Positions 3,395-50,367 of a stretch of DNA of 64,000 bases are shown here, one piece after another. The stretch is from Minisyncoccota bacterium (GTDB taxonomy: Bacteria > Patescibacteriota > Minisyncoccia > Phycocordibacterales > Phycocordibacteraceae), in assembly GCA_041664265.1 (NCBI GenBank), contig JBAYLD010000004.1, forward strand, positions 33,470 through 97,469, in the 5' to 3' direction. How positions within the stretch are numbered: position 1 is the first letter of the stretch; every line of letters starts with the position of its first letter. The translations under genes and the position numbers were made by a program. The notes beneath the pieces are model-generated. The model was not told the origin of the DNA, did no database searches, and saw nothing but the letters and a program-made list of their open reading frames with translations.

Positions 3395-3444
3395 CCGCAA
3401 GGTGACTCCTTACGGAGTAAGGTGTCACCTTGTGGACCTTGCGG
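3395..3444. repeat. Degenerate composite copy of the PAL-A palindrome family (ccgcaaggtgactccttacgg / taaggtgtcacctt)
   Basis: Shares the GGTGWCACC core and CCTTACGG arms with the other PAL-A copies. It lies between convergent genes. Confidence 0.6.
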
Positions 3445-4108
3445 CGGAAAGCGCGTCATCAATCAGTTGCTTCACTGCGTCGTAGGGATAGGCGCCGGCC
3501 ATGACCACCGGCGAACGGCCTTGTACAAGGATGAGCGAATAGGGCGTGCCTTCGGCGCCCAGAGCGAACGCGTTCTGGCGATCGGCGGTGATGCGCGCGT
3601 CGATTGTTGAAGACGCACTGGCGAGGCAGATGGCGAACGCATTGTCGGAGATACCGACTGAAGCAGCAATAGTCCCGTAGTTTGAGGGATTGATCGGCTG
3701 AGCGGCGAAGAGCGCCTCAGTAAACCTCCAGAACGCATCATTACCCGCGACCTCTGCGGCGCACTCCGCCGCGCGTGCGTGCGAAAACGCGTTCGGATGG
3801 ATTTCGATAAGCGGGAACTCGCGGTGGACCCAGGCGACCTCGCCCGTGGCGCCCTCGTTTGCGATAATCTGACGGAGCGTTTCGTCGAAGTCTTTGCAGA
3901 ATCCACAATCGAAGTCGGTGTACTCGACGATCATCACCGGAGCCGCGGGGTTCCCGAGAATGTGATCCTGACTACTCACCGGCCGCACCAAGGTTGGGTC
4001 ACCAGTGCCTTGCGGTACCGCAGGTTTTTTTAACGAGAAATACACTGCTCCGGCGACGACGATGCCGCCGAGGATGATCGCGACAGGGATGGCGAATGAA
4101 GATTTCAT
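3425..4108 (-). CDS. DsbA-family thiol:disulfide oxidoreductase, membrane-anchored
   Basis: Has the CGFC active-site motif in a thioredoxin-like context (EYTDFDCGFCKDF) and an N-terminal TM helix MKSSFAIPVAIILGGIVVAG. Confidence 0.75.
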   Translation of the reverse strand: MKSSFAIPVAIILGGIVVAGAVYFSLKKPAVPQGTGDPTLVRPVSSQDHILGNPAAPVMIVEYTDFDCGFCKDFDETLRQIIANEGATGEVAWVHREFPLIEIHPNAFSHARAAECAAEVAGNDAFWRFTEALFAAQPINPSNYGTIAASVGISDNAFAICLASASSTIDARITADRQNAFALGAEGTPYSLILVQGRSPVVMAGAYPYDAVKQLIDDALSAARSTR

Positions 4109-4686
4109 AAGGGGAGTGCGTGCGTCATTGCTGGGACAGCGCGTAGCTCCTGTTCCCAAAGGGAGGTGTCGAGCTTGATGTCGCGGATGTCGCGCAGGTC
4201 TTTATACTTCAACACGCCGTGAGAGAGCGCGTAGTCGTAGAGTTCGCGCGTGAGGCGGACGTCCTCGATGCAGTATGCGCGCACCTCATCCTTTTTCCCT
4301 TCCCGCCACCACTCGCCGGCTTTGAGCCCGTCGCCCGACTTACCCTTGCCCAAGGTCGCTTCAGCGAGCGACTGGAGCCGGATACGGCGCCCGAGAACCT
4401 TCTGCACTTCGCTCAAGAGATCGAGCGAACGGATATGCGAGAGGTTGCCCGGATAGTAGCGATTGAGGAGAGGGATATCGAATGAATCGGAGTTGAAGCC
4501 GATGAGCATGTCGGCGCTTTCTATGATCGGCCAGAGTTTTGAGAGGTCTTCTTTATCATACGAAGTATAGCGATCTGTGTGTGAATCGTGGACGCCGACC
4601 ACAATAAGCTCTTGTTCATTTACGTCGATATGCCCGCGCACGACGGAATGAGAAATTGACTCGATATCAAAAGTGAGCGCGCGCAT
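4105..4686 (-). CDS. RNase H-like 3'-5' exonuclease (DEDD / PolB-exo-like)
   Basis: FDIES and YCIEDV acidic motifs. There is a 4-nt overlap with the dsbA-like start. Confidence 0.5.
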   Translation of the reverse strand: MRALTFDIESISHSVVRGHIDVNEQELIVVGVHDSHTDRYTSYDKEDLSKLWPIIESADMLIGFNSDSFDIPLLNRYYPGNLSHIRSLDLLSEVQKVLGRRIRLQSLAEATLGKGKSGDGLKAGEWWREGKKDEVRAYCIEDVRLTRELYDYALSHGVLKYKDLRDIRDIKLDTSLWEQELRAVPAMTHALPL

Positions 4687-4690
4687 ACGC

Positions 4691-5962
4691 TCAGCTGCCA
4701 GAACGAAGGCGGGTCGGGATCTCGGATACAGGAAGCCCGGCCTCTTCGCCCGTCTTGAGTATCTTCATGCGGACGGCGTTGTTCGCGATCTCGTCCGCGC
4801 CGTAGGCGATGAAGAACGGGATGTCGCGCTTCACCGCATCTTTTATCTGGTCACCAAGCGCACGGTCGGTCAGGTTGACGAAGACACGGCAGCCCTGCGC
4901 GCGGAGCGTATCGGCAAATGATTGTGCGGCAGGAATATCGCTCGCGCGGGGCGTGCCGAGATAGAGTTGCGGCTTCCCGCTCGTGGTATCGAGAGGGAGT
5001 TTGTGCGTCTCGATGAAGTCGGCGAGCGTGATGTCACCCATGCCGAAACCGACCGCGGGGATCGGGTCTCCACCCCAGAGCGCAACCAGCTTATCAAAAC
5101 GCCCGCCACCAAAAAGCGAACGGGGATTCGTCGGATTCGTGTCGTACACTTCGAATACTATGCCGGTATAGTAGTCAAAACCGCGAGTAATGCTCGGGTC
5201 AAAGACAACATTACTGATGTCGCGTGCTTTGAGCGATTCGATGCAGTCGAGAAGCTTCTTTTTTTCAAGGGCGACTCTCGGATCTTCGCTCGCATTCGCG
5301 ATGAGCTCAAGGGGATCCTTTTTTGGGCCAAGTGCAACGAATGCCGCAGCAAAGGCCGTCGAGGTCATCTTCGCCTTTCTATCAAGAAGATGCAGATAAT
5401 TCTTAGCGCGTTCACCAGTGAGTCCTGCGGCGACACAAGCAGCGTTCAAGAGCGTGCGGGAACTCATGCGGATGACGAAGTCAGTCCCCTTCGCACCGAA
5501 CGACTTCAAGATCTCGGAGGCGAGTCTGACGATCTCGATATCCGCCTCCCCCTCAGGGAGACCGACGAGATCGACGTTCAATTGGTAGTGTTCGCGCGAG
5601 CGCCCCTTCTGCGGCCGCTCATAACGAAAAACGTTCGGGATCGAGAACCAGCGGAGCGGGAAGGTGAGTTCGCGGCGTTTGGCGGCGACCATGCGCGCCA
5701 GGGTTGGCGTCATCTCTGGGCGGAGCGTTACGCGCCGATCGCCGCGGTCCATGAAGGTGTAGGTCTGGTCGCGCACGATCTCTTCAGAAGTCTTTGCTTC
5801 ATAGATCTCGGCGCGCTCGAGCGGGGAAGCGTTGTACTCTTCATAGCCCCACAGCGCCAACGTCTCGCGCATCTGCGCGAAGAGCGCCAACCGCCGCGCC
5901 CAATCTTCGGGATAAAAATCCCGGACGCCTTTGTACGAGTCGGTTGAAAGCGGTTCTGACAT
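4691..5962 (-). CDS. hisS: Histidine--tRNA ligase
   Basis: Class II aaRS motifs: KGVRDFYPED, RYERPQKGRSREHYQ and GGGRFD. Start taken at MSEPLSTDSYKG. Confidence 0.9.
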   Translation of the reverse strand: MSEPLSTDSYKGVRDFYPEDWARRLALFAQMRETLALWGYEEYNASPLERAEIYEAKTSEEIVRDQTYTFMDRGDRRVTLRPEMTPTLARMVAAKRRELTFPLRWFSIPNVFRYERPQKGRSREHYQLNVDLVGLPEGEADIEIVRLASEILKSFGAKGTDFVIRMSSRTLLNAACVAAGLTGERAKNYLHLLDRKAKMTSTAFAAAFVALGPKKDPLELIANASEDPRVALEKKKLLDCIESLKARDISNVVFDPSITRGFDYYTGIVFEVYDTNPTNPRSLFGGGRFDKLVALWGGDPIPAVGFGMGDITLADFIETHKLPLDTTSGKPQLYLGTPRASDIPAAQSFADTLRAQGCRVFVNLTDRALGDQIKDAVKRDIPFFIAYGADEIANNAVRMKILKTGEEAGLPVSEIPTRLRSGS

Positions 5963-49521: not shown

Positions 49522-49591
49522 AATGTCCAATAAAAATATCAAGGTCTCGCCTTGATAAACATGTCGGGACGTTTAACGTCCCGACATGGGC

Positions 49592-50305
49592 TTATACTTT
49601 GCGGATGATGAGGAAGGGGGTCATCTCGCTGTCTTGGCCGGCGGGGTTGTCGATGAAGAGCTCCTGGATAAACTTCTCGCTGATGGCTCGCGTTGACTTG
49701 CCGAGCGAGAAGGCACCGCGATAGTTGGCGTCGATAATGACCGCTTCGACGCCGAAGCGTTCTTTAATCTGTCGCGCGACGCCGTTTGGATCCGCGGGCG
49801 CCTTCTTCGCATATTCTTGATAAGGTTCAATCGTCCACGACATCGGGCAGTCGATCGACTTGGCCTGCTTGCCGACCAGATAATAGAATGCGCCCTTGAT
49901 GCCGAGCGGGCGCGTGAGAGCGGCGACAGCTGCCGCAAAGAGCGTACGCAGATAGCCCGCCTCCTCGATGAGGAGCTGCATCGCCGGCGCGGTGCCGTGC
50001 CCAAGACCGCGAAATTGCGGCGTCCCAACATGGTTCTTTACTCGCTTCGCGAGGAATCGCGCGAGCCGCGAGGTCACGACCTCGTCGCTGCGGATAATGC
50101 GGCTCTGCGCCACGCAGACAACCTTTTCGCTCACAAAGAGCATATCGCCCGGCGCAAGATGCGGGGCGGCATATTCTTCAAGGAGCGCGAGCAGATCATC
50201 GCCGCTCTCGATAAGTCGCGTCTTGATCGGGAGTCGTAGATAGCGCTCGCCCGCAGCAACGCCCTCAAGCTTCTTCCCGGTGTTTGGTTCTATAGTTGTA
50301 GACAT
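49592..50305 (-). CDS. CofE-like (F420-0:gamma-glutamyl ligase family) protein
   Basis: COG1478-like motifs such as LFVSEKVVCVAQSR. ATG at 50305. Confidence 0.45.
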   Translation of the reverse strand: MSTTIEPNTGKKLEGVAAGERYLRLPIKTRLIESGDDLLALLEEYAAPHLAPGDMLFVSEKVVCVAQSRIIRSDEVVTSRLARFLAKRVKNHVGTPQFRGLGHGTAPAMQLLIEEAGYLRTLFAAAVAALTRPLGIKGAFYYLVGKQAKSIDCPMSWTIEPYQEYAKKAPADPNGVARQIKERFGVEAVIIDANYRGAFSLGKSTRAISEKFIQELFIDNPAGQDSEMTPFLIIRKV

Positions 50306-50333
50306 GTTCACATAACTATACCAGCTCTGTATA

Positions 50334-50367
50334 CAAGGAGACACCTCGCGGCGAGGAGTCACCTTGT
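50334..50367. repeat. PAL-A2 variant: caaggagacacctcgc-g-gcgaggagtcaccttg
   Basis: Shares the ACACCTCGCGGCGAGG centre with the 33104 and 36241 copies. It sits in a divergent intergenic region. Confidence 0.65.

Follow-up and report, generated by a model that had tools for sequence, protein, structure and literature searches.

We analyzed 64,000 nt of DNA from a Minisyncoccota bacterium (positions 33,470 to 97,469 of contig JBAYLD010000004.1, assembly GCA_041664265.1). We will call this whole stretch the window, and coordinates below are within it. Its genes are chromosomal: they include rpoD, hisS, a two-component system, a type I restriction-modification system, a PIF1-like helicase, and GH130 enzymes. 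Dispersed among them are copies of a 21-nt palindrome, CCGTAAGGTGWCACCTTACGG, which we will call PAL-A. A single copy has two arms of 10 nt around one central nucleotide (10+1+10). An earlier reading of the DNA alone (the sequence-only reading) had listed 11 PAL-A sites and had suggested that they were either repeats of the REP/BIME type (repetitive extragenic palindromes and bacterial interspersed mosaic elements) or a global palindromic operator.

We scanned the window for the 21-mer with up to three mismatches, using 100 shuffles as the control. There were nine matches (starting at 3395, 6116, 30659, 32454, 32793, 32818, 33104, 34130, and 36241), compared with 0.00 expected. All 11 of the listed sites exist, although the one given as 30661 begins at 30659. 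The sites are as follows, where ORF is open reading frame and free energies are for single-stranded DNA (ssDNA):

3395..3444: composite doublet of two abutting 21-mers with 2 mismatches each, plus an extra right arm; between convergent genes; -19.5 kcal/mol
6116..6136: exact 21-mer within the coding sequence of the prmC/hemK methyltransferase (5976-6659, - strand), in frame and read as S-VRCHLT-E
30659..30679: 21-mer with 1 mismatch, 3 nt past the stop of hsdS; the palindrome reaches 30654-30684 (TAAGC...GCTTA); -10.4 kcal/mol
31212..31228: half copy (left arm, center, and start of the right arm), 4 nt past the stop of ORF 30744-31208
32454..32474: exact 21-mer, 19 nt upstream of ORF 32493-32738 (DUF3977); it adjoins another palindrome, TTACATAGGGCTGCCCTATGTAA, and is followed by TGATAAGAT, which resembles an extended -10 promoter
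32793..32838: doublet of 21-mers with 1 and 2 mismatches, 25 nt apart; -19.6 kcal/mol, z -8.4
33104..33142: perfect long form of 39 nt (41 nt with one more pair), 6 nt past the TAA of a Zn-ribbon ORF (32859-33098) that is convergent with an S49 peptidase gene (33227-34090, - strand); -25.4 kcal/mol, z -10.5
34130..34150: exact 21-mer in the divergent gap between the start of the S49 peptidase gene (34090, - strand) and a + strand gene with its ATG near 34181
36241..36298: long form (39 nt, 36241-36279, 2 mismatches) plus an extra right arm, GGAGTCACCTTACGG (36284-36298); begins 12 nt past the TAA of ORF 35954-36229; -25.8 kcal/mol
50331..50369: degenerate 39-nt form (core 50334-50366) between divergent ORFs, upstream of a cupin gene (50385-50774, + strand); -12.7 kcal/mol

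The sequence-only reading described every 21-mer site as a perfect palindrome. This is correct for 6116, 32454, and 34130, which are the only exact, perfect 21-mers; the remainder have one or two mismatches or are shortened. Similarly, the 39-nt form, with its center ACACCTCGC-N-GCGAGGTGT, is present at all three of the places reported (33104, 36241, and 50331, which had been given as 50334), but only the first of these is a perfect 39-mer. Counting the half copy at 31212-31228 and the extra arms at 3416-3444 and 36284-36298, there are about 13 PAL-A units in the window. The doublets (33104, 36241, 50331, 3395-3444, and 32793-32838) are 39-46 nt long and resemble REPINs (REP doublets that form hairpins). 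More broadly, perfect palindromes whose arms are 8 nt or longer number 51 in the window and 1-9 in shuffled sequences.

Folding, spacing, and gene context of PAL-A

As ssDNA, the PAL-A 21-mers are predicted to form hairpins of 9-10 bp (-9 to -10 kcal/mol, z of -3.9 to -6.3). The 39-mers at 33104 and 36241 are predicted to reach about -25 kcal/mol, and the degenerate copy at 50331 to reach -12.7 kcal/mol. The doublets at 3395-3444 and 32793-32838 are each predicted to form one long hairpin. At Rfam's gathering thresholds, the window matches only two tRNAs, and there is no match at the PAL-A sites.

Neighboring copies are from 25 to 24,543 nt apart. This irregular spacing excludes a CRISPR array, as the sequence-only reading had stated. 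The flanks of the copies are unrelated, except that 32454 and 32818 have neighboring motifs in common. Because the flanks differ, the copies are independent and not a duplicated segment.

PAL-A averages about one copy per 5 kb, with almost none in coding DNA. The reported cluster at 30-36 kb is genuine and coincides with an island (30.6-36.3 kb) where genes are short and GC is low (39-48%), and which holds 8 of the roughly 13 units. Because the island consists of short genes, it has many intergenic gaps. Conversely, we found no PAL-A in the 9.3 kb to the left of the window or in the 8 kb to its right, where the genes are long housekeeping genes. (A type I restriction-modification operon at 24272-30656, with hsdR, hsdM, an ORF with an M23 peptidase domain, an unknown ORF, and hsdS, leads into the island of small unknown ORFs. 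In a relative, at the loci we call L007/L029, the order of the island's genes is shuffled. L numbers denote loci outside the window.)

Ten of the 11 sites are intergenic or touch only a gene's last codons or its stop; the other (6116) is within prmC. PAL-A lies just past the stop of a co-directional gene at 30659, 31212, and 36241 (by 3, 4, and 12 nt) and more loosely at 32454 and 32793/32818. It lies in convergent gaps at 3395 and 33104 and in divergent gaps at 34130 and 50331. The sequence-only reading had placed most copies immediately after stop codons. This fits 30659, 31212, 33104, 36241, and 3395, but not the two divergent gaps or prmC. PAL-A can also supply stop codons itself, as both arms contain TAA and the center can be read as TGA. 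For instance, the TGA stop (3425-3427) of a DsbA-like gene (3425-4108, - strand) is the center of a PAL unit within 3395..3444.

PAL-A in other genomes

We searched 185,579 species-representative genomes, as well as metagenomes, for exact matches to the 21-mer, so the conservation of orthologous sites described below is ascertainment-biased. Among the representative genomes, there were 10 stretches with the 21-mer. All of these are from metagenome-assembled genomes (MAGs) of the candidate phyla radiation (CPR), and they are labeled as Paceibacterota, Parcubacteria or Kaiserbacteria, with two Saccharibacteria. Another 41 stretches are from metagenomes, many of them from groundwater. The flanks of the 51 stretches are unrelated, and relatives of our bacterium carry PAL-A on several contigs. 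Viral contigs contain no exact PAL-A, so it is not a phage-borne repeat.

Several of the PAL-A loci are 70-78% identical to the window at the nucleotide level and are syntenic with it. These are from relatives, so individual sites can be compared. For two genes that only 14 nt separate in the window, L029 has a PAL-A 39-mer exactly in between, and an arm of an inserted 39-mer in L029 contains a gene's TAA stop. In L003, two copies surround a small ORF; at that place the window has no PAL-A, and its gene there is a different one. At the site orthologous to 3395, the PAL-A composite is present in the window, L032, and L008, while L036 has a canonical GC-rich terminator hairpin with a T-run. Long forms of the 33104 type are also found in L007, L003, L029, L016, and L052.

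Most PAL-A variants are decayed, and there are half copies as well. There are two exceptions: a compensatory dialect, GGCGWCGCC, of which L035 and L041 together have six copies, and a single compensated pair at 33104. We considered covariation as proof of the structure, but with just one clear dialect and one compensated pair among mostly decayed variants, we rejected this argument. The mixture of exact, decayed, and half copies is that of a repeat family with a master sequence, unlike operator sites that are uniformly functional.

Both PAL-A lengths (21 and 39) are multiples of 3, and other CPR genomes have exact copies in frame within trmD (L002:3166), a murD-like gene (L015:3042), and a murC-like gene (L019:1653). 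In these three genes, PAL-A is read as (L/I/G)RKV(T/S)PYG.

RAYT-like proteins and their palindromes

REPs are associated with RAYTs (REP-associated tyrosine transposases), and the relatives encode a candidate partner for PAL-A, which we will call RAYT-A. RAYT-A is a protein of 223 amino acids of the HUH/Y1 type, with the motifs LMPNHFHLV (HUH) and YVHCNP (tyrosine). Every RAYT-A locus that we saw (L001/L040, L011, L020, L026, L044, L052/L053, and L054) has PAL-A in its flanks. In L001/L040, L020, L026, and L044, RAYT-A is directly behind a tandem PAL-A doublet with a period of 41 nt. In L011, one PAL lies 37 nt upstream of RAYT-A, and then the contig ends. PAL-like doublets are also found downstream of RAYT-A in L001 and L011. 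The neighbors of RAYT-A are constant: MurJ, a tetratricopeptide repeat (TPR) protein of about 800 amino acids, RAYT-A, and the RNase P RNA (rnpB). This synteny holds at seven distinct loci with 70-100% identity. The arrangement is the same in L052 (74% protein identity) and L054 (70%), where the PALs are slightly degenerate and one of them separates the promoter's -35 element from its -10 element. RAYTs and REPINs have been defined by this kind of signature: a syntenic, single-copy-like Y1 transposase with flanking copies of a repeat that is common elsewhere (PMC5581495).

RAYT-A scores 25-26.5 bits against Y1_Tnp from Pfam, which is above the gathering score of 23. In NCBIfam, its sole match is REP_Tyr_transpos, at 35.1 bits, which does not pass the equivalog cutoff of 80. 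The HUH and Y-x-x-x-N-P motifs are conserved in RAYT-A. The family has over 880 proteins, and the organism names are only from Patescibacteria; one protein is named "REP element-mobilizing transposase RayT" by JGI. The AlphaFold model (AF2) of RAYT-A has a pLDDT of 80 and a pTM of 0.82, and its best match in PDB is 4ER8 (E = 4.8e-7), which is the REP-associated tyrosine transposase of E. coli with a bound REP hairpin. The next matches are the transposases (TnpA) of IS608, ISDra2, and IS200. Sequence and profile searches of PDB with RAYT-A gave no match, so the link to 4ER8 is by fold comparison only.

A motif that resembles a DnaA box (TATCCCCAC or TTATCCACA) precedes the PAL units in the 5' flank of RAYT-A and a few other PALs. 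It occurs at L001 5950-6030, L020 8750-8830, L026 5530-5630, L044 5030-5120, L049 3010-3080, L010 6700, and L042 9920. We considered that these doublets might mark a replication origin (oriC), but they are the 5' flank of RAYT-A and not an origin. Neither form of the motif is enriched in the window. It may be a cleavage or guide site, or a linker like those in BIMEs.

The sequence-only reading had nominated another protein, encoded at 40851-41546, as the RAYT that acts on PAL-A. This protein, which we will call RAYT-B, is indeed RAYT-like, but its flanking palindromes are different. A third paralog, RAYT-C, is encoded just outside the window. The related features are:

40851..41546, - strand: RAYT-B, a RAYT-like HUH/Y1 ORF with HUH motif NHYHLL and tyrosine motif YLHLNP; 32% identical to RAYT-A
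41546..41568: REP-B palindrome, TGAAGGGTTTACGAAACCCTTCA, directly upstream of RAYT-B
L055 7186 to about 7900, roughly 1.5-2.1 kb to the left of window position 1, - strand: RAYT-C, with HUH motif ENHFHLL; between rpoC and dnaG
16239-16259, 16266-16299, 46916-46936, and 46944-46960, and to the right of the window near 69533 and 70676 (L058): copies of a second 10+1+10 family, TTAGGACATC-C-GATGTCCTAA

RAYT-B is 100% identical to a protein of an NCBI MAG labeled as Candidatus Paceibacterota. It scores 22.2 bits against Y1_Tnp (gathering score 23) and 27 bits against REP_Tyr_transpos (E = 3e-6, cutoff 80); like RAYT-A, it is a distant relative of the proteins in that NCBIfam family. It is flanked by GAAGGGTTTCGTAAACCCTTC, with a degenerate copy of REP-B downstream at 40817-40852. 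Another copy, AATGAAGGGTTTCCGAAACCCTTCATT, lies in frame inside the RAYT-B coding sequence (41356-41382), which gives an extra segment, GMKGFGNPSF, that is absent from the paralogs. The flanking palindromes of RAYT-B and its orthologs are GAAGGGTTTCGnAAACCCTTC or GATGGACCTACGAGGTCCATC, and never PAL-A: the ortholog in L056 is flanked on both sides by the palindrome of the window's RAYT-B, and those in L025 and L057 are flanked by GATGGACCTACGAGGTCCATC. Judging by its sequence and its flanks, RAYT-B is a paralog of PAL-A's likely partner and not the partner itself. RAYT-B and the adjacent ORF 41678-42292 (together, 40810-42480 of the window) are absent from the gap between the PIF1 helicase and a HAD hydrolase in the nearest relative (L029 6873-7028); that gap has two other small palindromes instead.

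RAYT-C is flanked by three copies of TGTGGAAGTC-C-GACTTCCACA, which is a 10+1+10 palindrome, and again never by PAL-A. The gene call for RAYT-C appears to be shortened at the N terminus, as an upstream ATG restores an N terminus of the YHV..RG type. Thus, the RAYT paralogs on this contig or in close relatives number at least three, and each is paired with a 21-nt palindrome of its own. The lineage has several such pairs, and PAL-A probably belongs with RAYT-A.

The contig has other palindromes as well. The second 10+1+10 family listed above has the core GGACATCSGATGTCC and at least six copies on the contig. A third family, TACATAGGGC-T-GCCCTATGTA, is found at 32236-32255, 32429-32451, and 32740-32760, and near 31262; it directly abuts copies of PAL-A, and these mosaic clusters are reminiscent of BIMEs. 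Also, a perfect palindrome of 41 nt, GGACTTCGTAAGTCCCTATC-T-GATAGGGACTTACGAAGTCC, lies at 40465-40505, in the 3' part of the ORF for the PIF1-like helicase (39037-40806). It contains CGTAA, which is common to PAL-A, REP-B, and the palindrome of L025/L057. Separately, five tandem repeats of about 265-300 nt (12639-14121) within the gene for a surface protein of 1374 amino acids (11056-15180) correspond to Big_2 domains.

How PAL-A may have spread

The REP/BIME-type interpretation of the sequence-only reading fits our results. PAL-A has a short, stable predicted hairpin, a dispersed excess of mostly extragenic copies, doublets, and presence or absence at orthologous sites, and in relatives it flanks a gene for a RAYT-like protein. 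We propose that PAL-A is a REP/REPIN-type family of Candidatus Paceibacterota (CPR/Patescibacteria) that was spread by RAYT-A via recognition of ssDNA hairpins, and that selection has filtered the copies to gene ends, gaps, and tolerant in-frame positions. We consider this to be quite probable. When the DNA is single-stranded, such as at the replication fork, PAL-A would fold into a hairpin of 9-10 bp (19 bp for doublets). RAYT-A, encoded outside the window, would recognize the hairpin as an HUH/Y1 tyrosine transposase. It would then cut and rejoin ssDNA, which would seed new copies over long times. In relatives, the PAL-A doublet ahead of RAYT-A overlaps its promoter. New copies would survive only in harmless places: intergenic gaps, the extreme ends of genes, and tolerant loops of proteins in frame. 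Our proposal accounts for the tolerance of PAL-A at gene ends, because the arms give TAA in both orientations and the center can read TGA, and for its tolerance within protein loops, since both element lengths are divisible by 3. We also think it probable that the cell has co-opted some copies to act as 3' hairpins or substitutes for terminators, and for autoregulation of RAYT.

Several observations weigh against this proposal. First, PAL-A lacks the imperfect stem and 5' GTAG of the REPs from E. coli and Pseudomonas: it is a perfect palindrome with GTAA inside each arm. (The GTAG tail and imperfect stem are typical of enterobacterial REPs and not of every RAYT-associated repeat; PMC6006769.) Second, we did not find RAYT-A in the 81 kb of contig that we could read, so its pairing with PAL-A rests on the relatives. 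Because the RAYT-A loci in those relatives are orthologous, the PAL-A doublet beside RAYT-A is one conserved association and not eight independent ones. Third, the copy in prmC is hard to explain. Four genomes (the window, L003, L036, and L034) share the 21-mer of 6116 unchanged while its flanks are about 60-75% identical, and the codons for SVRCHLT show no synonymous change while nearby codons vary freely. Also, the prmC ortholog in L008 has DLPKHLK in place of the PAL-A segment, with equal length. So PAL-A replaced seven codons without changing the length of the gene, which simple insertion does not explain. The identity of the 21-mer amid diverged flanks hints at sequence-level selection or conversion. 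L003, L036, and L034 were retrieved by exact match, so this conservation is ascertainment-biased. Independent checks are mixed: the composite at 3395 is retained in L032 but not in L036, and the prmC copy is missing from L008.

These points suggest another possibility: that PAL-A and RAYT-A are more than a selfish repeat in decay, and form an old system of a Patescibacteria clade, inherited vertically, with the exact 21-mer maintained at the DNA level. The argument for this is that the 21-mer is identical amid saturated flanks, at synonymous positions in essential genes, and that it is length-neutral in prmC. We view this as unlikely, but not far-fetched. If it were true, then either the hairpins would have a function in the host, such as punctuation of replication or transcription in organisms where many of the standard factors are missing, or PAL-A would spread by templated replacement (conversion) instead of insertion.

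We also considered that PAL-A might be mainly a transcription terminator, or a hairpin that stabilizes the 3' ends of mRNAs, that is kept for its RNA structure without any transposase. Several copies are 3-12 nt past stop codons or lie between convergent genes, and the place of the 3395 composite (window, L032, and L008) is taken in L036 by a canonical terminator. At least two extra palindrome pairs extend 30% of the copies, compared with 6% expected, and sequences that resemble extended -10 promoters often directly follow PAL-A. However, the PALs in the window are not followed by T-runs, and a terminator scan scored none of them. Elsewhere in the window, there are canonical bidirectional intrinsic terminators (A-tract, GC hairpin, and T-tract) at 6681-6712, 15201-15233, 48139-48166, 51189-51221, and 57088-57133, so this CPR genome uses ordinary terminators alongside PAL-A. 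Furthermore, PAL-A is found in divergent gaps (34130 and 50331) and inside coding sequences (6116, and trmD, murC, and murD elsewhere); a terminator needs a structure and not a fixed 21-nt sequence across many genomes; and the flanking of RAYT-A would be left unexplained. A mainly terminator role seems improbable to us.

A binding site in duplex DNA for a dimeric protein, whether the global operator of the sequence-only reading or a site for organizing the chromosome (like those of ParB, Noc, or MatP), would explain the perfect dyad with half-sites of 10 bp. It would also explain the identical sequence at orthologous sites despite diverged flanks, the compensatory dialect in L035 and L041, and the PAL that sits inside the RAYT-A promoter, between -35 and -10. 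But this seems inconsistent with the 39-nt form, which is conserved across genomes and puts the outer half-sites 18 nt further apart, and with the many copies that are halved or decayed. Most copies are downstream of genes (including in convergent gaps) instead of at promoters, some are in essential coding sequences, and none of the window ORFs that we scanned is a candidate regulator beside a PAL-A copy. The operator is not supported, and we give this whole class of explanation little credence.

Bacterial uptake sequences can also form inverted pairs. In Neisseria, DNA uptake sequences (DUS) are mostly single copies, at about 1 per kb and also inside genes, and inverted pairs downstream of genes act as terminators. 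PAL-A, like the DUS pairs and Correia elements of Neisseria, is a conserved short inverted pair downstream of genes, and it might be kept through dependence on uptake, as in Neisseria or Haemophilus. In favor of this idea, the sequence is conserved across related genomes, and CPR have competence genes; a gene for DprA (DNA_processg_A) lies just to the right of the window. But unlike the DUS, the arms of PAL-A do not occur alone: in the window, all of the 10-mer arms are within PAL-A elements, mostly full palindromes, except for one match that is probably due to chance. With about 1 copy per 5 kb, near absence from coding DNA, none in 17 kb of adjacent housekeeping genes, and no explanation for the link to RAYTs, uptake is a very poor fit, and we doubt it strongly.

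We are just as skeptical that PAL-A copies are recombination sites at the ends of mobile cassettes (similar to the attC sites of integrons, or composite units between two hairpins). Such sites would account for the grouping of small ORFs at 30.6-36.3 kb, nearly every one of which is bounded by PALs, and they are consistent with L007/L029, where the same genes are in another order with PALs at the junctions, and with the different small ORF between two PALs in L003. However, the gene at 21407-21805 is found in three contexts, and the homology extends from ATG to stop and not from PAL to PAL; the window copy has no PAL. PALs are also found beside core genes, and there is no integrase or recombinase among the 30 window ORFs that we scanned. 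In particular, PAL-A does not fit an attC array in its size (21-39 nt for PAL-A, 57-141 nt for attC), in the lack of an integrase among the scanned ORFs, or in the cassette boundaries, which are not at PALs.

Returning to the spread of PAL-A by RAYT-A, the closest precedents are the REPs and BIMEs of E. coli, with TnpA_REP (the RAYT of 4ER8). Like PAL-A, these are short hairpin-forming palindromes that are hugely over-represented, mostly extragenic, and found as singlets and doublets. The repeat flanks a single gene for an HUH/Y1 transposase, whose fold is the best structural match to RAYT-A. However, TnpA_REP requires the 5' GTAG, and the biochemistry of RAYTs was done with the GTAG-containing, imperfect-stem REPs of E. 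coli and Pseudomonas (PMC3479197), while PAL-A is a perfect 10+1+10 palindrome without that tail and with GTAA in both arms. RAYT-A is also about 60 residues longer than the RAYT of E. coli (223 vs. 165 amino acids), is only about 15% identical to it, is below the NCBIfam equivalog cutoff, and has a CPR host.

The REPIN-RAYT systems of Pseudomonas and Enterobacteria (Bertels & Rainey; PMC3116915, PMC5581495) share with PAL-A the doublets that form long hairpins and the varied decay. Their RAYTs, like RAYT-A in the relatives, are at a conserved chromosomal site, are flanked by an abundant repeat, and are apparently inherited vertically (PMC5581495). RAYT-A is syntenic at seven loci; the nearest relative lacks RAYT-B at the syntenic position. 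Unlike in REPINs, a single PAL-A is already a hairpin, and a tandem pair is equivalent to an inverted doublet, because PAL-A is its own reverse complement. The presence of at least three RAYT paralogs with their own 21-nt palindromes, on one contig or in close relatives, is another difference.

The CPR proteins also resemble subclass 2.4 of the TnpA_Y1 family (Quentin et al. 2018, PMC6006769), with HUH motifs of the NH[IFV]H type and tyrosine motifs like Y-x-x-N-N-P. In that subclass, a REP can lie inside the tnpA_REP gene, as REP-B does at 41356-41382 in RAYT-B. Subclass 2.4 was described from Cyanobacteria, Bacteroidetes, and scattered phyla (PMC6006769). The CPR proteins differ in the WQ motif, where their residue is F instead of W.

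The copies of PAL-A that are in frame in prmC, trmD, murC, and murD are reminiscent of the Rickettsia palindromic elements (RPEs), which Ogata and colleagues reportedly described in 2000 as lying in frame inside protein-coding genes without destroying them. RPEs span 100-150 bp, and no transposase is known for them; PAL-A measures just 21 or 39 nt, and there is a candidate RAYT for it.

Our full-text searches of the literature did not find any paper that links REPs or RAYTs to Patescibacteria or CPR, and the surveys of RAYT diversity that we read do not mention CPR. So the REP/RAYT system in CPR apparently had not been described. REPs and RAYTs have been characterized almost entirely in Proteobacteria, Cyanobacteria, and Bacteroidetes, and here they are in a lineage of ultra-small cells with streamlined genomes. 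PAL-A is dense enough to shape the ends of genes, to supply stop codons, and to sit in frame inside essential genes. This matters for the annotation of CPR MAGs, as PAL copies lengthen or shorten the called genes (such as prmC and the DsbA-like gene), and for their assembly, as contigs are broken by perfect palindromes and repeats. And because CPR genomes have little room for pure junk, PAL-A and RAYT-A may be a compact natural system for asking what domesticated RAYTs do.

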